The position numbers were made by a program, and so were the translations under genes. Positions 11,322-48,193 of a stretch of 64,000 bases of DNA are shown in pieces. This stretch comes from Thermoanaerobaculia bacterium (GTDB lineage Bacteria; Acidobacteriota; Thermoanaerobaculia; Multivoradales; JAHEKO01). The notes under the pieces were generated by a model. It searched no databases and was not told the DNA's origin. It worked only from the letters and a program-made list of their open reading frames with translations. The DNA lies in assembly GCA_963781065.1 (NCBI GenBank), contig CAWAET010000022.1:29055-93054 (forward strand), in the 5' to 3' direction. Positions within the stretch are counted from its first letter, which is position 1, and every line of letters starts with the position of its first letter.

Positions 11322-11419
11322 TCGCAGCCCTCCGAGGTCTTTTCCGCCGGGACTTCCGCGTCCACAAGGACTGCGCCGCCCCGGCGATACTCGCCAACGT
11401 CGCCAAAGTAGCCCAGAGG

Positions 11420-11447
11420 CGTCAGGAGATCGTCAGGAGGCGTCGAA
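11420..11447 (-). promoter_or_regulatory. heptamer direct-repeat box (SARP-box-like), plus-strand CGTCAGG-agat-CGTCAGG-agg-CGTCGAA
   Basis: Repeat periods are 11 and 10 nt. On the minus strand the proximal CCTGACG lies 9 nt upstream of TACTTT (11405-11410). The box sits in the divergent region between the small ORF and the SARP-type regulator. The same box recurs at 44898-44925. Confidence 0.45.
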
Positions 11448-11531: not shown

Positions 11532-13838
11532 ATGAGTGACATCGAGATCCGTCTGCTGGGCGGTTTCGACATTCGCTGCGGCGAGGCGGCAGTGCGACGT
11601 TTCGAGTCGCAGAAAGCGCGTGGGCTGCTCGCCTATCTGGCGCTGCACCGCAACCAGGCGCTGAGCCGGGAGCACGTCTCCACCCTGCTGTGGTGCGACA
11701 AGGACGAGACCGCTGCCCGGCGCAACCTGCGCCAGGTGCTCTACAGCCTGCGCACCGTCTTCACCGAGGCCGGGCTGAGCGCCGAGCTGCTGCTCGGCGC
11801 CGCCAAGGAGATCAAGCTCCACCCCGACATCGACGTGCGGGTGGACGTGGTCGACTTCGAAGAGGCCATCCGGCGCGGACTCGACGGCACCGAGCCCGAT
11901 TCGCAACAGCTCGGCCGAGCCGCCCGGCTGTACATCGGCGACTTCTTGAGCGGTTTCTTCGTCCGCGACTGCCCGCAGTTCGAGGAGTGGCTGATCACCA
12001 CGCAGGAGCGGCTGCGCGAGGCGGCCCTGGCCGCCTTTCACACCCTGGTCGGCGCCTGTCTCAGACGCGGCGAGTCGCGCATGGGCATCCACTACGCCCG
12101 CCGCCTGCTGGCGATCGACCCGCTGTCGGAGCGGGCGCACCGCCAGTTGATGCGCCTGTACGCCCTGTCGAGCCGCCGCACCCGGGCCCTGGCCCAGTTC
12201 GAGGAGCTGCGCAACCTGCTCAACCAGGAGCTCGGCGTCGAGCCGCTGGCCGAGACCACCGAGCTCTACCAGGCGATCCTGCTCGAGGAGGTGCCCGAGG
12301 AGTCGGCCGGCGAAGAGCCGATGGGCCCCCTGATCCCGCTCGCCGGGCGGAGCGAAGAGCTGGCCGAGCTGCAGGGCTCGTGGCAGCAGGTCCTCGAGCA
12401 CGGCGCCCGGCTGGTGCTGATCAGCGGCGAGACCGGCGTCGGCAAGACCCGGCTGGTCAAGACCTGCGTCGACCGCGCCAGCTCGCAGCGCCGCACCCGG
12501 GTGCTGCGCGGCCGCGCCTACGAGGCCGCCCCGGCGCTGGCCTACGGCCCCTGGGCCGAGATCGTCACGACGGTCTTCGCCGACCTGATGCCGGACGAAG
12601 AGCTCGATCCCGAGCAGATCGACATGCGGTCGATCTCCGACCTGGCCCTGATGGCGCCGCAGCTGGCGGCGCTCGACCCCGAGCTGCTGGGCGGGCCGGC
12701 GCGGCGCGAAGACGGCGATGCGACTCGGCTGCCCGAGTCGCTGGGGCTGCTGCTGGCGGCCCTCACCGAGGGGCAGGACGGCGGCCGGACGCCGATGATC
12801 CTCATGCTGAGCGACCTGCACTGGGCCGCCGCGGAAAGCCTGGACCTGCTCCAGCTGCTGGCGCCGCAGCTCGCCGGACTCCCCGTCCTGGTGCTCGCCA
12901 CCGTCGACCCCACGGTGCCCGGGCTGGCGCATCCGCTCCTCACCGGCGGCGCGACCGACATCGGTCTGCCGGTCGACCGTCTGGCCCTCGGCCGCCTGCC
13001 GACCGAGGCCCTGGCCGAGATCGCCGACGCCCTGGTGCCCTCGGAGGACAGTCCCTGGCTGGCCGAGCTGTTGGAAGCCTGGTCCGGCGGCCTGCCGCTG
13101 GCGGTGACCGAGCTGATCAACTACCTGTGGGACGAGGACGTGCTGATCGCCCGCCAGCCCGGAGGCTGGACCGTGGACCGCGAGCGCGCCGAGACCTGCG
13201 AGCCGCCGGCAAGCCTCCACGACCTGATCGTCAGCCGATTCCGTGGCCTGCCGGCCTCGGCCCGGCGGCTGCTGGCACTGGCCGGTGTCATCGGGCAGCG
13301 CTTCGACGTCGACCTGCTGCGGGTCGCCGGCGACGAGAACCTCGCCGTCGTCGAGGCCTGCATCGAACTGATGCTGCAGCGCTGGCTGATCCGCCAGTTC
13401 CCCCGCACCTGGACCCACACCGGCCGCGAGCGCGACATCGTGCTGTTCGCCCGCGGCGCCCGCCGCGGCATCTTCGAGTTCGCGCACGAATCGATCCGCA
13501 GCGCCATCGTCGCCGACGTCAACCCGCTACGGCGGCAGGTGATGCACCGCGACACAGCGGCCGCTCTGGCCCAGATCTATGCCGAGGACTCCGAGTCGGT
13601 CTGTGAGGCCACCGCCCACCACCTGATCGAGGGCGGCGAGATCGACCGCGCGCGGGACTGCCTGATGATGGCGGCCGAGCGGGCGCGGCTGGCCGGTGCC
13701 ACTACCACCGAGAGCCGCTATCTCGAGCGCTGGCGGACATCGCTGGGCCGCAACAAGGGCTCCCGCGCGGCACCCGGCGAGCGCGAGCACATCGAGCAGC
13801 GGCTGAGCGAGATCGCCGCCCTCCAGCCGCCGGGCTAG
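11532..13838 (+). CDS. SARP/AfsR-family regulator (winged-helix + BTAD + AAA ATPase + helical repeats)
   Basis: MSDIEIRLLGGFDI...QKARGLLAYLALH (OmpR-type DNA-binding domain), a BTAD region (FEEWL...ELYQAIL) and a P-loop (ISGETGVGKTRLV). ATG at 11532. Confidence 0.85.
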   Translation: MSDIEIRLLGGFDIRCGEAAVRRFESQKARGLLAYLALHRNQALSREHVSTLLWCDKDETAARRNLRQVLYSLRTVFTEAGLSAELLLGAAKEIKLHPDIDVRVDVVDFEEAIRRGLDGTEPDSQQLGRAARLYIGDFLSGFFVRDCPQFEEWLITTQERLREAALAAFHTLVGACLRRGESRMGIHYARRLLAIDPLSERAHRQLMRLYALSSRRTRALAQFEELRNLLNQELGVEPLAETTELYQAILLEEVPEESAGEEPMGPLIPLAGRSEELAELQGSWQQVLEHGARLVLISGETGVGKTRLVKTCVDRASSQRRTRVLRGRAYEAAPALAYGPWAEIVTTVFADLMPDEELDPEQIDMRSISDLALMAPQLAALDPELLGGPARREDGDATRLPESLGLLLAALTEGQDGGRTPMILMLSDLHWAAAESLDLLQLLAPQLAGLPVLVLATVDPTVPGLAHPLLTGGATDIGLPVDRLALGRLPTEALAEIADALVPSEDSPWLAELLEAWSGGLPLAVTELINYLWDEDVLIARQPGGWTVDRERAETCEPPASLHDLIVSRFRGLPASARRLLALAGVIGQRFDVDLLRVAGDENLAVVEACIELMLQRWLIRQFPRTWTHTGRERDIVLFARGARRGIFEFAHESIRSAIVADVNPLRRQVMHRDTAAALAQIYAEDSESVCEATAHHLIEGGEIDRARDCLMMAAERARLAGATTTESRYLERWRTSLGRNKGSRAAPGEREHIEQRLSEIAALQPPG

Positions 13839-38751: not shown

Positions 38752-39768
38752 TCAGGAGCGTTCGAGGTCGGCCAGAACGGCCTCCCGCACCGCCGGCAGG
38801 CCGGCCATCCCGGGCGGATAGACAAGCCGGCGCACCGGCACCTCCCGCACCAGCCGGGCAAAGGCCTCCAGCCGTGCCGCCTGCAGGCCCGCCGCCTCGA
38901 CGATGTAGGGCGAGAACGAGCGGCGCAGCAGCTCGACGACCGCCTGCCGCGCGGGGACCGGAGAGATCCGGACGCCCCCGCCGGCCGTCTCGCCATCCAG
39001 CCGCTCGGGCAGATACAGACGGCCGAGCGGCGCCGCGGCGGCGTGGAAGTCGCCGAAGCCGCCCTCCCCGACCGGAACCCAGTGCTTGCCGAGCTGGACG
39101 CGAGACGCCTCGCGGAGCCCCGGATCGGTGACGAAGTGCGCCAGCCCGTCCGGCCGCATGCGCATCTGGGGGTAGCCGGAGCGGCCGACGATCCCTGCGG
39201 CGGGCGCCTCGATCGCCAGCAGGTCGTCGCAGAGCAGCGGCGCGCCACCGGCCATCATCGCCGCCGCCAGGGCGGTCTTGCCGCCCCGGTGGCCGGCCAT
39301 GAAGGCCACCACCCGGCCGGCGACAACCACCGCCGAGGCGTGCAGGGCGCAGATCGCCAACCGCTCCAGCCAGTAGGCCAGGACCGGCCCCAGCAGGCGG
39401 ACCTCGACCAGCCGCGCGCCGGCCGCCCGACGCAGGTGACAATCGATGCGATCGCCGCCCAGGTAGAAGTCCAGCGCGTCGCCAAAGCGCAGCAGCTCTC
39501 CCTCGTCCAGCCGGTAAAGCCGCGACAGGCTGTCGCCGGCCGGATCGAGCAGCGGGCTCTCGTAGACCGGGTCGCCCAGCTGCGCCACGTACGGAGGCCG
39601 GTCCGCGACCGAGAAGGTCAGATCCACGTCCCCCCGGCCCGGCGACAGCCGGCTGGCAAAGGCGAACGAGCTGGCCAGGGTGAGGCCGAACAGGCGGTGG
39701 CTGCGCCGGCCCGAGATCGCGCCGGAGATCGCGCCCCTCGGGGTGCCCCCGTCCGGCGCCTCCGTCAT
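38752..39768 (-). CDS. HPr-kinase-C-terminal-domain-like serine kinase (HprK-related)
   Basis: LHASAVVVAGRVVAFMAGHRGGKTALAAAMMAGGAPLLCDD is a P-loop-like GxxGGKT in an HprK-type context. Confidence 0.65.
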   Translation of the reverse strand: MTEAPDGGTPRGAISGAISGRRSHRLFGLTLASSFAFASRLSPGRGDVDLTFSVADRPPYVAQLGDPVYESPLLDPAGDSLSRLYRLDEGELLRFGDALDFYLGGDRIDCHLRRAAGARLVEVRLLGPVLAYWLERLAICALHASAVVVAGRVVAFMAGHRGGKTALAAAMMAGGAPLLCDDLLAIEAPAAGIVGRSGYPQMRMRPDGLAHFVTDPGLREASRVQLGKHWVPVGEGGFGDFHAAAAPLGRLYLPERLDGETAGGGVRISPVPARQAVVELLRRSFSPYIVEAAGLQAARLEAFARLVREVPVRRLVYPPGMAGLPAVREAVLADLERS

Positions 39769-39800
39769 GGCACCTCCGTCATGGCGCCTCCGTCATGGCG
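39759..39800 (-). repeat. three tandem 14-nt units (minus strand GCCATGACGGAGGn), each carrying an ATG and a GGAGG
   Basis: Direct reading. ATGs lie at 39796, 39782 and 39768. The first two open 5-codon ORFs (MTEAP*, MTEVP*) whose TGA overlaps the next ATG. The third opens the kinase gene. Confidence 0.85.
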
Positions 39801-39815
39801 GCCCCATCATCGCGG

Positions 39816-40829
39816 TCAGACGGCGGCGGCTTCCAACAGCCGGTGCCCGGCCAGCGTCTCGGCGAAGGAACCAAGGTCCCGCCGCAGGGTGTCGAGCGGC
39901 GCCTCGTACCGCTCGGCGAGGAAAGCCGCTCCGGCGTCGACGCTGCCCCAGGCCGCCAGGGCCCGCCACATGTCCGCGCCAACCCCCTCGAGGGCGAAGA
40001 CCCGATCCGTCGCCAGCGAGTAGAGCCAGATGCGGTCGTCGAGGGCGGCCGTGGCCACCTCATCGGCGACCCGCCAGGCCGGGGCCTCCACCGGCACCGG
40101 CGGCGGCCCGAGCTCGGCCCGCGCCTTGAGACAGCTGTGCGGCGGCAGCAGCCGCCAGCCCCGCTCGAGAGCCCCGCTGGCGGGGTTCCAGATCGGGCGG
40201 TCGGGCTCGCTCCAGGCAAAGCCGACCAGGTCCGGCAGACCCAACCAGTAGCGGCCGCCGCCGAGGTGGTCGCGACCGCTGGCCAGCCAGCGTGGATAGT
40301 CGTCGCCGTACAGCTCGCGCGCGTGGTCGGCCAGATCGGCCGCCGCCACACAGCGCTCCACCCGCGGCTCGGTGGCGACGATCGCCGCGCGCAGGTCCGG
40401 GTGCGAGTAGAGGTGCGCGAACACGACCCGCGGGCTGTCGCAGCCGGCCAGGGCGGCGCGGAAGCGCGAGCCGCTCAGCGCACAGTCGTCCACCAGCAAA
40501 AGCGGCCGATCGCCGGCCGGCTCGCCCGACAGCCGTGCCGCGCGCAGATCGAGCATGTACGCCAGCATGCCCAGCACGATCAGCCCGCCACGCGGGATGC
40601 CGCGGGCGGCGAACGCTCTCAGATCGCCGCGCGAGTGGCCCTCGAGCAGCTTGGCCGCCAGCGCCTCGCACAGGCGCTCGGCCCGGCGGTAGTCGACATA
40701 GCGGAGGGTGTGGCGCAGGCGCCGGACGACTCCCGGCAGGGTGCCCAGCCGCGCGGCATCGACCGATGTCAGCCCCGGCGGGGCCTGCAGGCCGGTCGGC
40801 AGCCGGTCCGCCTCATCAGTCCTCGTCAT
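39816..40829 (-). CDS. fusion protein: phosphoribosyltransferase-like domain + C-terminal PqqD-family (RRE-type) domain
   Basis: RGGLIVLGMLAYML and PLLLVDDCALSGSRF are a PRPP-type motif. The C-terminal ALEGVGADMWRALAAWGSVDAGAAFLAERYEAPLDTLRRDLGSFAETLAGHRLL is PqqD-like. The ATG at 40827-40829 overlaps the upstream stop (ATGA). Confidence 0.6.
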   Translation of the reverse strand: MTRTDEADRLPTGLQAPPGLTSVDAARLGTLPGVVRRLRHTLRYVDYRRAERLCEALAAKLLEGHSRGDLRAFAARGIPRGGLIVLGMLAYMLDLRAARLSGEPAGDRPLLLVDDCALSGSRFRAALAGCDSPRVVFAHLYSHPDLRAAIVATEPRVERCVAAADLADHARELYGDDYPRWLASGRDHLGGGRYWLGLPDLVGFAWSEPDRPIWNPASGALERGWRLLPPHSCLKARAELGPPPVPVEAPAWRVADEVATAALDDRIWLYSLATDRVFALEGVGADMWRALAAWGSVDAGAAFLAERYEAPLDTLRRDLGSFAETLAGHRLLEAAAV

Positions 40830-41977
40830 CGGCCGAGCTGGAAGATGACGGCGCCGACGTCGTCGCCCTGGAGCTCCCACTCGGTGGACTCCCGCTTGCG
40901 GTTGGGCCCGAACGAGTAGACGAAGATGACGCGGCTGCCGCGGCGGCGCGAGCACTCGTCACGGATCCAGTAGGGCGAGTTCCAGGGGTCGAGGAAGAAC
41001 TCCGCCCGCTCCGTCGGCATGCCCTGGCCGGTGAGCGCGGCGAAGGCGCCCTCGTACAGGTAGTCGGTGTCGTACTTCTCAACGAACGAGTAGACCCGCT
41101 TGTGCACTCCGCACCGGGTCACCGCCTTGCCGCGGTTGTCACGCGCCATGGTCAGGAAGTCGTCCTTGAGGGCGGCGGTCTCGGTAACCACCGCGGCCAG
41201 GATCTCCTCGCCGGTCCCGCGCTGCCCGCGCGAGTAGGCAGCCGCCGCCAGGCCCAGCGCGGCGACGATCGCCACCACCAGCGCCAGCCTGCCGAGACGC
41301 CGGGGCCCGGTCTCGGGCCGGCCGGCAAAGGTCTCCGCCGCGACCAGCGAGGCGAACAGGAATCCCAGCCCGACCATCAGCTCGATCACCTCGCCGGTGA
41401 ACTTGAGCGGATACTGCTGGTAGACGACCCAGGTGACCAGGAAGGCTGGCGCCAGTTGCCACGGCGACGCCACGACGGCGAGCCGATCCAACTGCCGGCG
41501 GACCGGCGCCGCCAGCGCCAGCAGCGGCAGCAACACGCCGTAGCCCAGGATGACGCCCTTCAGAGCCAGCTTGCGCAGCGAGGTGTCGACCACGTTGTGG
41601 ATGTTCAACTCCTGCTGGAAGTTCTCCTGCAGGAAGTAGACCGGCGGCCGGTAGCCCAGCACGCGCTGGCCCCACGAGATCTCCTCGCCGGCGACAAAGA
41701 CGCAGAACAGCGAGACGCCAGCCAGGAACCAGGGCAGCGCCCCGCTCGCCCGCCGCTGGCGGACCGCGGCGACGGCGAAGATCACCGCGGCGACGGCAAA
41801 GGCCCAGACCGTGGCCCATTCGAGGAACTCGTCCTCCTGGACCGCCTGGTAGTAGGCGTCCCGGCTCGACTCGTGAAGCGCCAGGGCCACGAGCAGCGGC
41901 AGCACCGCCAGCAGGTTGGCCACCAGCGGCCAGACGAAGCCCTGGGAGCTTCGGGCCGTGTTGAGCGTCGCGTTCAT
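40826..41977 (-). CDS. polytopic membrane protein with a GspG-C-terminal-like soluble domain
   Basis: Several hydrophobic helices occupy the first 250 aa or so. The C-terminal DPWNSPYWIRD...VYSFGPNRKRES resembles the pseudopilin DPWGxPY...GPDG motif. Confidence 0.65.
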   Translation of the reverse strand: MNATLNTARSSQGFVWPLVANLLAVLPLLVALALHESSRDAYYQAVQEDEFLEWATVWAFAVAAVIFAVAAVRQRRASGALPWFLAGVSLFCVFVAGEEISWGQRVLGYRPPVYFLQENFQQELNIHNVVDTSLRKLALKGVILGYGVLLPLLALAAPVRRQLDRLAVVASPWQLAPAFLVTWVVYQQYPLKFTGEVIELMVGLGFLFASLVAAETFAGRPETGPRRLGRLALVVAIVAALGLAAAAYSRGQRGTGEEILAAVVTETAALKDDFLTMARDNRGKAVTRCGVHKRVYSFVEKYDTDYLYEGAFAALTGQGMPTERAEFFLDPWNSPYWIRDECSRRRGSRVIFVYSFGPNRKRESTEWELQGDDVGAVIFQLGR

Positions 41978-42062
41978 AACCTCGACGCCGATTGTACAGG
42001 CAGGGCAAAGCCGGCAGAGGAGCCACGCTCTCCCCTACCGGCCGCGCCCCACCGGGCAGACG

Positions 42063-44834
42063 CTAGTGACTATCGCTGTCCGAATCGCTGTCCGACGCGC
42101 TGTCGGAGTCGGAATCGCTGTCCGACGCGCTGTCGGAGTCGGAGTCACCCGAGTCCGAGTCCCCGTCGTCGGTCACGATCTCGCCGTTGATGTGGCACGC
42201 CAGGCCGCCGCCGTCGGAGTCGCCATCCGAGTCGGAATCCGAGTCACTATCGCTGTCCGAGTCCGAATCGCTGTCCGAGTCCGAGTCGTCGCTGTCGGAA
42301 TCGCCGTCATCGTCGCCCAGTGGGCAGAGCTCGCCGCCCTCGCGGCTGGTCCCCTCGACGACCTCGAAGTCGCCGCTCACGAGGCCCGGCCCGATTGGCT
42401 GCGAGCAACTCGTGTGGATCTTGGTGTTGAGCTGGCCGTTGACGTAGATGCTGATCTCGGTCCCCAGGGTGCCCTTCTTGTCCATCCCGGAGAAGGAGAA
42501 CGGCGCTCCGGGCTGGACGAAGTCGTTGAAGACCACCTTGCCGTCCTTCTTCTGCTTGATCAGGACCTGGGCGTTCATCGTCAGCCCGTTGTACTGCAGA
42601 GTAAGTTCCTGGACCTTGCCCTCGCACCCGCCGCAGTCGCCGCCGGGGTCGTTCCCGGAGTCGCTGTCGGAGTCATCGGAGCCCGAATCACTGTCGGAAT
42701 CGTCATCGAAGTCGATCAGGCAGATCGGGGCCACCCCGGTGATGACGTCATCGGAGTCGGAGTCGGAGTCGGAGTCGCTGTCATCACCCGAATCCGAGTC
42801 ACTGTCGTCGCCCGAATCGGAGTCGCTGTCGTCGCCCGAATCCGAGTCGCTGTCGTCGCCCGAGTCCGAGTCGCTGTCATCGCCCGAGTCCGAGTCGCTG
42901 TCATCGCCCGAGTCCGAGTCGCTGTCATCGCCCGAATCCGAGTCGCTGTCGTCGCCCGAGTCGGAGTCCGAGTCGACGTCACAGGGACAGATGTACGGGA
43001 AGTCGAAGGTCAGGACGTCACCCGAGCCCACGAGGTCCACCTCGAAGCCCGGCACTATCCGGTCGGGCCCCCCAAGGCCGTCGCCACCGTCGTTGGTGAC
43101 GATCAGCGCCGTTACCGGCAGGGTGATGGCCAGGCCCTCGAGAGGGCCGCCCGGCTCGGAGTTCGCCGGCGTGCACTCGACCAGGTACTCACCAGGCTCC
43201 AGCCCTTCGAACAGGTACATGCCGCTGTCGTCGGTCGTCGTGGTGTCGAGCAGCTCCGTCTGATCCGCGTTCCAAAGCTTGACCTCGACTCCGGGGATGC
43301 CCGGCTCGCCGGGATCCTCTTCGCCGTCGCCGTCGCGGTCCAGCCAGACGAAGTTGCCGACGTTGTACTCGGGATCCGGCACCACCTCGGCGTCGAAGCG
43401 GAAGAGGTTCAGGTTCTCCAAGTCGAGTCCGCTGACCCTGACCTCGTAGAGACCCGGTGGCAGCTCCGCCACCTGGGCGTCGGAGGCCACGATGCGGGTC
43501 GTGGGCACGCCGGGATCGGTGGGATCGAACAGAGTGATCTCACACAGCGCCGAGCCTTGCGAGATGCAGAAGACCTCCCACTCGCGGTTGCCGGAGGGAT
43601 TCACACCGGGGTCATCGCCCGGCGCGCCGTTGCTGGCCAGGACCTCGTCCAGCCCGCCGGTCTGGCCGTCGTAGCGCTCGCGCAGGATGACCTCGTAGTA
43701 GATCGACGGCTGACGCAGGAAGGGGTTGTTCGAGGTCGCGGGTCGGTCATCAGGCGGGTTGCCGGTGGAGGGCCCCAGGCCGCCGGCCACACCCTCCCAC
43801 TCCGCGCGCCGCACGATGCAGAAATCGCCGGGCGCCGGAATCGGATCGCCGAGCTCCTGGGCGCAGGCAGTCACGCAACCCGCTTCGCCAACCTCGAGCT
43901 CGGGCTCGGTGCAGCGGAACCCCCAGGGGGGCAAATCGCCCAGGTCCCCCACTATCGAGGGTGTGTTGGGGTCATCCGTGTCGTTGTTGGTGCCGAGCGC
44001 GTCGCCGCGATCCAGATCGCCGTCCCAGATCTCGAGCTGGTTGATCTGACCGGAGCCCGGGGGCGCCTGCACGTCGAGGAAGAAGCTGAACGTGCCGTCG
44101 TAGGTCGTGCCCTCAGCGAGGCAGGCCGGGAAGTTGCTCAGGTCGGACAAGCAGGCCGGGTAGATGATCGCCAGCTCCTTCAGGTCGGGCATCGCGGCAT
44201 TGAAGCCGAAGGGCTGCTGCGTCACCTGGATCGAAACGTCGGTCTCGAAGGTCTGGACCTTGAAGACGCTGCGGATCGTCTCCGACGAACTCGACGGCAC
44301 CGACTCCAGTGCCGAGCGCAGCACGTAGGCGTACTCGCTCTCGCACGGGTTCTGACCGGGGTTCCCCACGCACGCCGCGGGGTCATTCGTCACCGCGAAC
44401 GACGTCCACGCGTTGTCGTCCAGCTCCTCGGTGAATTCGTTGATGACCAGCAGTGGAGCCACGTCGTCCGGGTTGCCGTCTTGTGGAGCGACGTCCGGGT
44501 ACAGCCGAAAGATCAGCCGCGGATCGGGCTTGATCGCCGCCTGGGTGTTGATGTCCCAGTGGCCGACGGCCCGGCTGGTCTCGCCGTCGAAGATCCGCAG
44601 CGTGAAGCCGGCGATCAGCGGCGAGCTGATCTGGATATCGACTCCCTGATCGGCAAAGGTCGCCAGGCCCTGGTCGGCTCGTGTGTCGGTGATCGCGAGA
44701 AACCGCCCGTCGTTGACCGCGCAAGACGGCAGACAGTTGGTGTCCATCTGCGCCTGCGCCGCGGCCACAGTGGGCAGCGTGAGCACCAGGACCACCAGCG
44801 ACAGTCCAATGCAGGTGTGCTTGTTCAGTCTCAT
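42063..44834 (-). CDS. secreted Ser-Asp-repeat protein with an SdrD-B/Cna-B-like domain
   Basis: Signal peptide (CIGLSLVVLVLTLPTVAAAQA). GNFVWLDRDGDGEEDPGEPGIPGVEVKLWN...DSGMYLFEGLEPGEYLV is an SdrD B-like fold motif. There are two DS-rich repeat tracts. GGAGG lies 5 nt upstream of the ATG. Confidence 0.85.
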   Translation of the reverse strand: MRLNKHTCIGLSLVVLVLTLPTVAAAQAQMDTNCLPSCAVNDGRFLAITDTRADQGLATFADQGVDIQISSPLIAGFTLRIFDGETSRAVGHWDINTQAAIKPDPRLIFRLYPDVAPQDGNPDDVAPLLVINEFTEELDDNAWTSFAVTNDPAACVGNPGQNPCESEYAYVLRSALESVPSSSSETIRSVFKVQTFETDVSIQVTQQPFGFNAAMPDLKELAIIYPACLSDLSNFPACLAEGTTYDGTFSFFLDVQAPPGSGQINQLEIWDGDLDRGDALGTNNDTDDPNTPSIVGDLGDLPPWGFRCTEPELEVGEAGCVTACAQELGDPIPAPGDFCIVRRAEWEGVAGGLGPSTGNPPDDRPATSNNPFLRQPSIYYEVILRERYDGQTGGLDEVLASNGAPGDDPGVNPSGNREWEVFCISQGSALCEITLFDPTDPGVPTTRIVASDAQVAELPPGLYEVRVSGLDLENLNLFRFDAEVVPDPEYNVGNFVWLDRDGDGEEDPGEPGIPGVEVKLWNADQTELLDTTTTDDSGMYLFEGLEPGEYLVECTPANSEPGGPLEGLAITLPVTALIVTNDGGDGLGGPDRIVPGFEVDLVGSGDVLTFDFPYICPCDVDSDSDSGDDSDSDSGDDSDSDSGDDSDSDSGDDSDSDSGDDSDSDSGDDSDSDSGDDSDSDSGDDSDSDSDSDSDDVITGVAPICLIDFDDDSDSDSGSDDSDSDSGNDPGGDCGGCEGKVQELTLQYNGLTMNAQVLIKQKKDGKVVFNDFVQPGAPFSFSGMDKKGTLGTEISIYVNGQLNTKIHTSCSQPIGPGLVSGDFEVVEGTSREGGELCPLGDDDGDSDSDDSDSDSDSDSDSDSDSDSDSDGDSDGGGLACHINGEIVTDDGDSDSGDSDSDSASDSDSDSDSASDSDSDSDSH
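42081..42140. repeat. perfect 30-nt tandem duplication inside the C-terminal SD tract
   Basis: GAATCGCTGTCCGACGCGCTGTCGGAGTCG x2 by direct reading. Encodes DSDSASDSDS twice. Confidence 0.85.
42747..42975. repeat. about 8 tandem 24-nt units encoding DSDSDSGD
   Basis: GTCGCTGTC(G/A)TCGCCCGA(A/G)TCCGA periodicity by direct reading. The repeat is in frame in the SD-repeat gene. Confidence 0.85.
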
Positions 44835-44897
44835 CGTGTCCTCCGTTCGCCCGACCCGTTCATCGTCCGGGATCTTGCGTGAATTGTGCTCACCAAC

Positions 44898-44925
44898 CGT
44901 CAGGAAAACGTCAGGTGACGTATCG
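44898..44925 (-). promoter_or_regulatory. second copy of the heptamer direct-repeat box, plus-strand CGTCAGG-aaaa-CGTCAGG-tga-CGTATCG
   Basis: Same heptamer and same 11/10-nt spacing as 11420-11447. On the minus strand the proximal CCTGACG lies 9 nt upstream of CACAAT (44883-44888), and that hexamer ends 48 nt upstream of the SD-repeat gene ATG. Confidence 0.45.
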
Positions 44926-44947
44926 GTGGGGACTCATGGGCTCCCCT

Positions 44948-44983
44948 GAAACGGAAAACGCCGGCGTCGCCCGGCGCCGGCGT
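44948..44983 (-). terminator. intrinsic terminator downstream of the precursor-like ORF
   Basis: The minus strand reads ACGCCGGCG-ccgggcga-CGCCGGCGT followed by TTTCCGTTTC. Perfect 9-bp stem. Confidence 0.55.
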
Positions 44984-45012
44984 AGTCGTGGAGCCAGGGT
45001 CACCGGACCGGA

Positions 45013-45186
45013 TCAGGTGGCGAACGACGCGCCGAAGCCGTCCCCGGGCACCTGGGTGGAGAGCGTGCGGGTGAGCTCCTTCAAGCTCCCGTACTCCTGC
45101 AGCTCGGGCGGCTGGTAGGGATGTCCGCGCCGGCTCTCGGCCGATGGCCTCTTCGCCTTGGTTGGCTCAGGTCGCTTGTCGCTCAT
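45013..45186 (-). CDS. candidate lasso-peptide precursor (57 aa), in frame with the upstream cyclase-like ORF
   Basis: MSDKRPEPTKAKRPSAESRRGHPYQPPELQEYGSLKELTR|TLSTQVPGDGFGASFAT. It matches the leader motif YxxPxLx3Gx5Tx exactly, and Asp is at core position 9. GAGGAGG lies 11 nt upstream of the ATG. A terminator follows the stop. Confidence 0.45.
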   Translation of the reverse strand: MSDKRPEPTKAKRPSAESRRGHPYQPPELQEYGSLKELTRTLSTQVPGDGFGASFAT

Positions 45187-47065
45187 CTCTTGGTCAACCT
45201 CCTCGGGCAAACCCCGCAGCCAGGATTCCAGGCAGAGAAAAGATAACAGTCCATAGGCGGTACCCGTTCCATCCCAGAATCTATCGAAGGCGGCTGCAAC
45301 GGAGCCAGTAATGAACTGTACAGCTTCGGCGTGGGGCTTGTCCAGCATCCGCTCGACCGCCGTCCTCTCCTCGTGCCTCAGACGGCCGAGAAGCACGTCC
45401 TGGATGTGGCTCTTGCTCACTCGCCGCCGAATCCGCTCGGGCATCCGGCCAGCCATCGCCAGGCGCAGGATGCGCCGGTCGCCGCCGTGCCAGCTGCGCA
45501 ACCGGCGGGGCGCGTGGAGCAGGAGATCCACCACTCGGCGGTCGAGGAACGGCAGGCGCCACTCCACCCCGGCGTGCGCCGCGGTGACGTCGATCGCGCT
45601 GTGCCGAGCCAGATCGAACGGCCGCCCGATGGAGCGCGCCGCCCAGCGGCCGGCGGGCCCCAGGCCGGCGGCGAGAGCTCGCCGCGGCAGGGCCGGCAAC
45701 CGGCCGCGCCACGACCCTCGACCGGCGCGCCGCACCCATTCCCGATCGCCGGCGGGCCGCAACCGCCGCAAGGCCTCCTGCAGCCCGGCCGGAACCAGCG
45801 GCCAGAGAAAGGCTCGCGCCAGGAGCTCGGCGGTAGCCGTCCCGGTCGTCGAGCGGAAGCGGGGCAGCTCGGCCGCCAGCTCGCGCCAGCCGACCAGCCG
45901 CAGCGCCCGCGGGTCGTAGTAGAAGGCGTGGCCCAGCACCTGGTTGGCGCCTTCGCCGGCCAGCACAACCCGGCAGCCGTCACCCGCGGCGGCGTCGAAA
46001 AGCGCGGCGGTGTGGCTGCGCAGCAGGTAGACCTCGGGCTCGTCCAGCGGCTGCTCGTCGGCCGCCAGCCGACCGAGGGTAAGCGGCAGCTCCGCCGCCG
46101 GGATCCGTCGCGACGCCACGCCCTCGAGTCGATCGTCGAGCTCGTCGAAATAGTCGCTCTCGTCCGCCGTCGGCGTGCCTTCGAAGGTGAGACAGTAGAG
46201 GCGCAGCCGTTCCGCCGCGACGGCCTCGTGGGCGGTGCTGGCGACGGCGGCCGAGTCGACGCCGCCACCGGCCAGCAGACCCACCGGCTTCGGGCTGCGC
46301 AACCGGCTGCTGACCGCCAGATCGAACACCCGGCGGAAGCCCTCGGCCCACTCCTCGTCGCTGGTCGAAGGAGCCCGAGAAGGTCGACCCCAGCTCCCAC
46401 CACAGCCGCTGCCTGAGGCCGGTCTCGTCGGCGGTCAGGAAGTGCCCCGGCGCGACGCGCCGCACTCCTTCGTAGACAGTGCCCTCGATCCAGTGGCGGT
46501 AGGAATCGTGGAGAAAGGCCTCGACCAGCGGCCGGTTGAGCGGCGGCCGCTCGGCCAGCGCCGCCAGCACCGCGCCGATCGTGCTGCCGAAGGCCAGCGT
46601 CGCTCCGCGCCGCGCCCAGTAGAGCTGGCGCATGCCCATCGCGTCGCGGGCCAGCAGCAGCCGGCGCCGAGCGCCGTCCCACAGGGCGAAGGCGAAGTCG
46701 CCGAGGGCCTGGTCGCACACCCGTGGCCCGAACCGTTGATAGCCGGCCAGCAGGAGCCGGGCGTCGGAGGCGTCCTCGCCGAGCTCCGGCCGGCCTTGCC
46801 GCAGGCCGGCCAGCAGCTCGTCCCGGTTGTCGATCCGCGCGTCCGCGACGAGCCGTAGCCGGCCGCTCGCGTCGGCGATCGGCTGTTCCTCGGCGACCTC
46901 CTCGGGCGTCGTCCAGAACCGGCCGTGCACCATGCCGACGGCGCCGCCGACCCAACTCGCCATGCCGTCCGGCGAGCGGTAGGCGAGCTGGCCCGCCATC
47001 CGATCCAGCCGCGTCGGGTCGATCGGCGCACCGTCCAGGTTGAGCAAGCCGGCGAAACAGCTCAA
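45013..47065 (-). pseudogene. asparagine-synthetase-like (lasso-cyclase-type) gene, frame broken near 46360, no stop codon before the precursor-like tail
   Basis: The N-terminal GATase-like domain (GDFAFALWDGARRRLLLARDAMGMRQLYW) is in the frame of 45980..47170. The synthetase domain (LLAGGGVDSAAV ... LESWLRGL) is in the frame of 45013..46329. The junction reads GAC CAG C GAC GAG. Probable TTG start at 47065 ([12 protein letters not shown]). Confidence 0.65.
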
Positions 47066-47108
47066 GGCCGCGGGCCCCGCGCCGTTGGCGGTGCGAGAGC
47101 GGCCCGCG

Positions 47109-48193
47109 CTAGGCCACGCTGACGTCGTCGCACAGGAAGACGTCCTGGATCGCGTTGAGCAGCTCGACACCCTCGGCCAGCGGGCGCTGGAACGCCTTGC
47201 GGCCCGAGATCAGGCCGCAGCCGCCGGCGCGCTTGTTGATCACCGCGGTGCGCACCGCCTGGGCCAGGTCGCCCTGGCCGCTCGACGAGCCGCCCGAGTT
47301 GATCAGCCCCACCCGGCCCATGTAGCAGTTGGCCACCTGCCAGCGCACCAGATCCACCGGGTGGTCGGTGGTCAGCTTGTCGTAGACCAGCGGGTGCGTC
47401 TTGCCGAAGCCGATCGGCGCCGTAGCCGTTGTTGTTGGTCGCCTGCTTCTGCTTGACGATGTCGGCCTCGATGGTGACGCCCAGGTGGTTGGCCTGGCCC
47501 GTCAGGTCGGCCGCCGCGTGATAGTCGACGCCGTCCTTCTTGAAGGCCGGCTGGCGCAGATAGCACCAGAGGATCGTCGCCATCCCCAGCTCGTGCGCCT
47601 GGGCGAAGCACTCGGCGATCTCGACCAGCATCTCGTCCGAGTTCTCGGCGCCGAAGTAGACCGTCGCGCCGACGGCCGCGGCGCCCAGGTCCCAGGCCTG
47701 CTCGACGCTGGCGAACAGCACCTGCCGATAGCGCGTGGGGTAGGTCAGCGATCTCGTTGTGGTTGATCTTGACGATGAACGGGATGCGGTGGGCGTACTT
47801 GCGCGACATCGTGCCCAGGACGCCCATCGTCGAGGCGACGCCGTTGCAGCCGCCCTCGATGGCCAGCTCGATGATGTTCTCGGGGTCGAACAGCGCCGGG
47901 TTGGGGGCGAAGGATGCGGCGGCCGAGTGCTCGATGCCCTGGTCCACCGGCAGGATCGAGACATAGCCGGTGCCGCCCAGGCGGCCGTGGTTGAGGATCC
48001 GCCCCAGGTTGACCAGCACGCTGGGTTTGCGGTTCGAGATCCCCCAGACCCGGTCCAGGTGGTCGGGCCCGGGCAGGTGCAGCTGGTCACGAGTGATGCC
48101 GGTGCAGGTGTGCTCGAGCAGGCTCGTGGCCTCGTCGCCAAGCAGCTCGGCTATGCGGTCGATAGTGCCCGAAGGGCTTGCCGTTACGGTCAT
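47109..48193 (-). pseudogene. fbaB: class I fructose-bisphosphate aldolase (FbaB/DhnA type) split over three frames by two single-base insertions
   Basis: Three segments each match the FbaB pattern: [17 protein letters not shown]...FIVKINHNE, then [17 protein letters not shown]...[17 protein letters not shown], then [23 protein letters not shown]...AVINKRAGG. The breaks are at about 47749-47752 and about 47415. Confidence 0.85.

Follow-up and report, generated by a model that had tools for sequence, protein, structure and literature searches.

A putative SARP-type promoter ahead of a large secreted-protein gene in an uncultured Thermoanaerobaculia bacterium

Two direct CCTGACG heptamers and a -10-like hexamer precede the gene for a 923-aa secreted protein in the 64,000-nucleotide stretch of Thermoanaerobaculia DNA analysed here (the window). 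We regard it as likely that this element is a SARP-type, activator-dependent promoter, bound by a putative regulator encoded at 11532-13838 of the window, starting transcription at about 44876 and driving the 923-aa gene and probably the genes beyond it. In the proposed mechanism two protomers of the 768-aa regulator would lie side by side on 11-bp units of the form (a/t)CCTGACGnTT, approximately from -40 to -19, where they would stand in for the missing -35 contact of the housekeeping sigma factor. Transcription would start about 7 nt past CACAAT, near 44876 on the minus strand, and the transcript would cover the gene of the 923-aa SdrD_B/DUF7467 protein and probably continue into the 383-aa, PqqD-fusion and HprK-like kinase genes of a lasso-peptide cluster.

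The element at 44883-44925 and its surroundings

Read on the minus strand, positions 44925..44883 of the window are CGATACG-tca-CCTGACG-tttt-CCTGACG-gttggtgag-CACAAT, and exactly 48 nt separate CACAAT from the ATG at 44834. Sequence, coordinates and this distance had all been given correctly in the preliminary description. The features of the element are as follows:

44919..44925, minus strand: CGATACG, a proposed degenerate third heptamer, judged here to lie outside the element
44909..44915, minus strand: upstream heptamer CCTGACG, invariant across 51 related sites
44905..44908, minus strand: 4-nt spacer TTTT, giving a repeat period of 11 bp
44898..44904, minus strand: downstream heptamer CCTGACG, at -28..-22 for a start at 44876
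44883..44888, minus strand: -10 hexamer CACAAT, 9 nt past the downstream heptamer
44876, minus strand: predicted transcription start (A), 7 nt past CACAAT, placed from the hexamer position only
44839..44844, minus strand: ribosome-binding site GGAGGA, 4 nt before the ATG at 44834

With CACAAT at -12..-7, the units aCCTGACGttt and tCCTGACGgtt fill -40..-19 exactly, and the upstream heptamer (-39..-33 if the start is at 44876) occupies the -35 position. The 22-bp unit of the box ends 6 bp before CACAAT, the same distance as in afsS, and the gap between heptamer and CACAAT is 9 nt, or 8 with the heptamer register moved by one position. A start at 44876 predicts a leader of about 42 nt. Consensus scanning revealed no sigma-70-like promoter at the 44883-44925 site. 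The only TTGACA-like words near CACAAT are CTGACG, at distances of 20 nt and 9 nt, and a -35 element hidden in the box was rejected because of these spacings. Comparison of the leader and terminator region with Rfam returned sub-threshold noise only and no structured RNA. The assembly contains many single-base indels, and the homopolymer spacer TTTT could therefore be miscounted; this worry is countered by the 11-bp period, which is identical in 50 other sites.

A further word, CATGAGT (window 44932-44938, minus strand), is placed 22-23 nt ahead of the upstream heptamer in the promoter of the 923-aa gene. It is also found in the paralogous promoter on contig C4 (~496225) and in the same-genus orthologue (L079, ~7530), and is absent from the other 48 box sites. 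It may serve a third protomer as a weak site, two helical turns away, or be an extra element specific to the genus.

The genes downstream of the element are:

42063..44834, minus strand: first gene, coding for the 923-aa secreted protein with signal peptide, SdrD_B, DUF7467 and Ser-Asp repeats
38752..41977, minus strand: three genes, coding for a 383-aa protein of no assigned family, a 379-aa ORF ending in PqqD and a 338-aa HprK-like protein

The 923-aa protein contains a conserved N-terminal domain of about 480 aa. Its gene is followed by a gap of 85 nt, then by an overlap and then by a gap of 47 nt, and the next gene is convergent. Terminator matches between the operon genes occurred at chance level and inside coding sequence, and none was convincing. 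The preliminary description had placed the secreted-protein, PqqD and kinase genes in one operon behind the element. As far as the compared sequences tell, the conserved target of the box is the large secreted-protein gene, whereas the 383-aa, PqqD-fusion and kinase-like genes are probably co-transcribed with it because they share its strand, are separated by short gaps and have no terminator between them. The hexamer TACAAT is present at 41991-41996 (minus strand), 13 nt ahead of the start codon (ATG) of the 383-aa gene and within the 85-nt gap; it could be an internal promoter with a very short leader, or a coincidence.

On the upstream side the element is preceded by two features:

45013..45186, minus strand: lasso-peptide precursor gene of 57 codons (NF033521, 25.4 bits against a cut-off of 19), the last gene of the upstream unit
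44947..44983, minus strand: terminator-like hairpin with UUUUCCGUUUC, past the lasso precursor gene

The hairpin proper (44983-44958) has 9 bp, 8 of them G-C pairs, and a folding energy of -17.9 kcal/mol; the U-tract UUUUCCGUUUC that follows it completes the arrangement of an intrinsic terminator, which lies 22 nt upstream of the element. It had been proposed that this terminator, together with a promoter of its own, spares the operon from simple read-through out of the cyclase gene. The strong hairpin with its U-tract and the retained box agree with that proposal, but the same-genus orthologue has not kept the terminator, and some read-through is therefore possible. We consider it rather unlikely that the operon is mainly read through from the cyclase/precursor unit, with the box promoter being minor or serving the secreted-protein gene only. 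Besides the lack of terminator conservation, this reading could appeal to the interruption of the U-tract, to the folding of the hairpin region, which taken whole is no better than that of its shuffles (z = -1.0), and to another genome of the same genus, in which the lasso genes and a secreted-protein gene stand in one co-directional row. The hairpin itself is nevertheless strong, and the box precedes the 923-aa family also on contigs C4 and C21, where no lasso genes lie upstream. Because the box is kept before the secreted-protein family at such loci, an autonomous promoter is favoured. No box was found ahead of the cyclase/precursor unit.

Several observations concern the upstream unit itself. 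The lasso cyclase (45013-47170 region, minus strand) is frame-broken near 46340-46380, and its C-terminal part runs stop-free into the precursor frame; in the same-genus locus L079 the reading frame of the cyclase is unbroken, and the precursor lies in that frame there too. Frame breaks affect lpxC (C15:23980-24784), the class I aldolase/fbaB (window 47062-48193) and the lasso cyclase (~46360), and such single-base breaks in essential or conserved genes suggest assembly indel errors rather than gene decay. The only sigma-70-like match in 44000-46000 is TGGACA-18-TACAGT at 45315-45344 (minus strand). It falls inside the cyclase gene, at its 3' end and about 130 nt upstream of the precursor's ATG, and could be a separate precursor promoter.

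Occurrence and conservation of the box

The exact 18-mer pattern, two heptamers with 11-bp spacing, occurs twice in the window, both times on the minus strand, and three times in the 4.9-Mb genome, where the heptamer frequency would predict about 0.09 occurrences (Poisson P(>=3) = 1.3e-4). Taken singly, the heptamer shows no enrichment in the window, with 14 copies found and 18 expected. A weight matrix was built from 46 sites, all of them from other genomes, and scanned over the 9.8 million positions of the 4.9-Mb genome. The 44883-44915 site received the highest score of the genome, 40.0 bits. Five sites rank below it, at 36.6 (the companion site in the window), 31.9 (C4:496202), 29.2 (C2:84099), 25.2 (C21:90392) and 21.3 bits (C8:326251), and a clear gap separates these six sites (21-40 bits) from the background maximum of 15.3 bits. 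The sites other than 44883-44915, with the small ORF that follows the companion box, are:

11405..11437, minus strand: companion promoter CCTGACG-atct-CCTGACG-cctctgggc-TACTTT, second in the genome
11321..11079, minus strand: 80-aa ORF with a GGAGGG ribosome-binding site; a Crp-like gene also lies past the companion box
C4:496202, minus strand: predicted box before a paralogue of the 923-aa protein (the C4 and C21 paralogues have 1065 aa and about 1108 aa)
C21:90392, plus strand: predicted box before a paralogue of the 923-aa protein (C21:90533)
C2:84099, plus strand: predicted box before the gene of a 288-aa membrane-anchored protein
C8:326251, plus strand: predicted box before a receiver/histidine-kinase hybrid gene with an ambiguous start codon

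All six predicted sites lie upstream of a correctly oriented gene and carry a (T/C/G)AnnnT hexamer 9-10 nt past the second heptamer. The 923-aa protein and its paralogues make up three of the six box-preceded gene products. The paralogues at C4:496132 and C21:90533 share 42% identity with it over the N-terminal domain of about 480 aa, possess DUF7467 repeats and have a box each; another paralogue, C4:406218-407315, is without one. A homologue of the 288-aa protein in another genus is likewise box-preceded.

The companion site had been presented as a counterpart of the 44883-44925 element at the regulator locus. Its score is the second best of the genome. The companion box (11420-11437), however, has the same minus orientation as the 44883-44925 site and faces away from the regulator gene at 11532..13838, toward the divergent 80-aa ORF, so that it is predicted to drive the 80-aa ORF and the Crp-like gene and not the regulator gene. 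Among Pfam families the 80-aa protein has no match, and it matches no DNA-binding family.

The orthologous intergenic region of a genome from the same genus (G002) reads GCTGACG-ttct-CCTGACG-ggtagcgca-GAGAAT. Box, 9-nt distance and an nAnAAT hexamer are kept there while most of the surrounding sequence has diverged. A GGAGG ribosome-binding site is conserved as well, the 923-aa protein is 65% identical to its G002 orthologue, and the order of the locus is unchanged (aldolase, cyclase, precursor, secreted protein, 383-aa gene, PqqD fusion, kinase).

We compared 51 distinct box sites, all from this order, against a background of 70% G+C. The heptamers are nearly invariant and the spacers vary, with a preference for nTnT (T in 72% and 66% of sites at spacer positions 2 and 4). 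Exactly 9 nt past the box, A is found in 70% of sites at hexamer position 2 and T in 66% at position 6. No conservation was detected upstream of the box across the 51 sites. The consensus motif is thus CCTGACG-N4-CCTGACG-N9-nAnnnT. CGATACG, which the preliminary description had set ahead of the two repeats, has no place in it as a third heptamer: at the third-heptamer offset at least 4 of 7 positions match in 4 of the 51 sites, against about 6 expected, and the word is not kept in the same-genus orthologue. It was rejected on both grounds.

In other genera, the genes behind boxes encode mostly signal-peptide or membrane-anchored proteins (L022, L021, L032, L033, L034, L045); examples are an FG-GAP-like repeat protein, a Cys-rich protein of 215 aa and large Ig-like repeat proteins. 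At L033 two divergent boxes stand back to back.

These comparisons bear on two other interpretations of the repeat. The box overlaps the -35 and spacer region, where repressors bind too, and it might be an operator through which the bound protein represses a weak constitutive promoter. We judge this very improbable, as there is no usable -35 on which an unaided promoter could depend and the scan returned no sigma-70-like promoter, the strict phasing between box and -10 in the 51 sites suits an activator that contacts RNA polymerase and not a repressor, and the characterised SARPs are activators (PMC10972967, PMC10936776). As for a chance or neutral duplication without function, genomes that lack the regulator do contain single exact boxes, about 0.1 for each genome. 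The top genome-wide score, the conserved orthologous site, the coupled -10 hexamer and the intergenic location in correct orientation all speak against such an origin, and comparison of the sequences effectively refutes it.

The candidate regulator and its co-distribution with the box

The reading that we prefer, a SARP-type activator bound to the box, depends on the identity of the binder, for which one gene of the window is the candidate:

11532..13838, plus strand: putative activator of 768 aa, SARP-type, with a candidate winged helix, BTAD and AAA_16 NTPase

Its BTAD domain (PF03704) scores 87 bits against a cut-off of 22, and its AAA_16 domain, an NTPase of STAND/NOD type, 78 bits (residues 270-454). 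The Trans_reg_C winged helix reaches 21.5 bits and is under the cut-off of 26.2. Alignments of residues 26-254 with EmbR (E = 1.2e-7) and with the SARP domain of AfsR (E = 5e-5) show the regulator to be only distantly related to characterised SARPs. Within residues 455-768 Pfam gave no TPR family. The genome holds one strong BTAD protein (92 bits), the next best scoring 34 bits. In 12 regulator orthologues the recognition-helix motif ARRNLRQ is invariant at an otherwise 42-78% identity; the helices of the two homologues that diverge most read RANIRQ and RRSVRQ, and neither of these homologues has the box.

Full-length orthologues of the regulator (38-78% identity) are present in 24 of 41 close genomes, this genome counted. 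In this sample the exact box was found in 20 of the 24 genomes with a SARP orthologue, as opposed to 3 of the 17 without; in a class-level sample the corresponding fractions were 8/12 and 16/139. The class-level genomes that lack the orthologue have 0.12 exact boxes per genome, which is the chance rate. Since the genomes in these samples are kin, the counts overstate independence. Four genomes with a SARP orthologue lack the exact box: in three, boxes with one mismatch stand where they would be expected, and the fourth (G038) has none.

The gene neighbourhood links box and regulator as well. In every examined relative that keeps it, the box adjoins the regulator gene and points away from it; at the regulator loci of G012 and G038 no box was seen. 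In G101, which belongs to another order, an exact box is found 93 nt ahead of the orthologue and divergent from it, so that the box abuts the SARP gene across two orders. In relatives (L008, L013, L014, L030 and L036) the box leads into a homologue of the 80-aa ORF, behind which comes one of the 923-aa protein; in some cases another box lies between the two. In G001, of the same genus, the regulator, the box, the small ORF and a secreted-protein gene are followed without interruption by cyclase, PqqD fusion, precursor and kinase, then by a second box with a second secreted-protein gene, and by Crp. The present genome has these components in two blocks about 31 kb apart and retains the box. The regulator is thus cluster-situated in the relatives, and the cluster has been split in this genome; gene order shows an ancestral adjacency of regulator and target. 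Arrangements with two boxes in one neighbourhood were noted at L081 (G001:C22:9000-28500) and L080 (G024:C13:850000-867000).

Other binders have to be weighed at this point. Crp/Fnr proteins read palindromes, not direct repeats, and the Crp-like regulator was accordingly rejected as a binder of the box. More generally, the promoter element might be real and be read by some other direct-repeat binder, either a response regulator of OmpR/PhoB type or the 80-aa protein, the SARP gene being merely a neighbour. Direct repeats of 11 bp are typical of OmpR/PhoB-family sites also, and one of the predicted sites precedes a gene for a hybrid sensor kinase/receiver. The 80-aa ORF always travels with the SARP gene and co-occurs with the box as tightly, so that co-occurrence would fit either protein. 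We nevertheless think a different binder improbable. Genomes without a SARP orthologue have the box at the chance rate only, the box abuts the SARP gene in two orders, the recognition helix of the SARP is invariant along with the heptamer, and the 80-aa protein matches no DNA-binding family. Moreover, the position at -40..-19 is specific to SARPs and differs from the -41.5 of class II activators (PMC10936776).

We infer that the regulator encoded at 11532-13838 binds and activates the element. The preliminary description had proposed a SARP-type, activator-dependent promoter without a usable -35, common to this element and the regulator locus, and comparative sequence analysis supports the proposal as firmly as this kind of evidence can, because box and spacing are conserved, a -10 signal emerges from the 51 sites, the genome has a single clear SARP, and regulator and box co-occur and are adjacent in relatives.

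The host and comparison with known systems

SARPs are usually regarded as particular to actinobacteria and as tools for activating silent antibiotic clusters; a recent review calls them exclusive to actinobacteria (PMC10972967). The host genome contains LpxC (242 bits), and neither WhiB nor RbpA was found in this 86%-complete genome. For these reasons the host is not an actinobacterium. An actinobacterial host is a taxonomic habit of the SARP family, not a mechanistic requirement. We lean, by a small measure, toward the wider view that a SARP/STAND regulator operates here outside Actinobacteria through an AfsR-like, -35-replacing geometry without RbpA, and that its conserved regulon consists of the 80-aa protein, several very large secreted DUF7467 proteins and the tailoring half of the lasso cluster. 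If this is true, the protein would govern an extracellular protein programme and would not be an antibiotic-pathway switch of the classical kind. What would be new is a known kind of promoter in an unusual host and with an unusual regulon, a small one of six predicted sites in this genome. It presents a clear sequence-level case of SARP promoter logic, with a defined motif, in an uncultured LPS-bearing lineage. The system could show whether the replacement of -35 by SARPs works with a non-actinobacterial RNA polymerase, and the element is a possible switch for heterologous expression of the lasso tailoring genes (PqqD fusion and HprK-like kinase).

The closest parallel is AfsR and its afs box in Streptomyces coelicolor (PMC10936776). 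In SARP targets the direct repeats have a spacing of 11 or 22 bp and the 3' one is 8 bp away from the -10 element, and two SARP protomers side by side offer sigma region 4 an alternative docking surface (PMC10936776). In the afsS promoter, the 22-bp afs box of two 11-bp repeats spans -40 to -19, ahead of a suboptimal -10 (CACTGT) and with a poor -35 (PMC10936776). The element described here shares this layout, including the suboptimal -10 (CACAAT) and the lack of a functional -35; the box centre is at -29.5 in the afs box and at -30.5 for the heptamer pair. Both regulators are of the 'large' SARP type with BTA domain and STAND-type NTPase domain, the winged helix of the regulator described here being a candidate. 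In full-length AfsR the NOD and TPR domains exert auto-inhibition (PMC10936776). Unlike in the AfsR system, the repeat is CCTGACG, the regulator is a distant relative (E = 5e-5), the targets are mostly secreted proteins and the system is known here from sequence.

The sites of the small SARPs ActII-ORF4, DnrI and RedD are similar in that heptamer direct repeats with 4-nt spacers lie over the -35 region, the 3' repeat is about 8 bp from the -10, and the regulator stands beside a biosynthetic cluster (PMC10972967), as it does beside the lasso cluster in the relatives. They differ in often having three repeats, whereas two are supported here. The regulator described here has an extra NTPase domain and is encoded 31 kb from its target in this genome, and its predicted regulon extends to other contigs too.

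Boxes of the PhoP/OmpR family, for example PHO boxes, are also 11-bp direct repeats, read by winged-helix domains arranged head to tail. In contrast to them, the box described here has no link to a receiver-domain regulator, is nearer to the -10 than typical class II sites, and is co-distributed with a BTAD protein. The mycobacterial PafBC system resembles the proposed mechanism in its 'sigma adaptation', in which the activator is placed between DNA and sigma region 4 at promoters without a -35, as has been proposed for SARPs. PafBC, unlike the putative binder of this box, belongs to the WYL family and uses a -26 element with no direct heptamer repeats.
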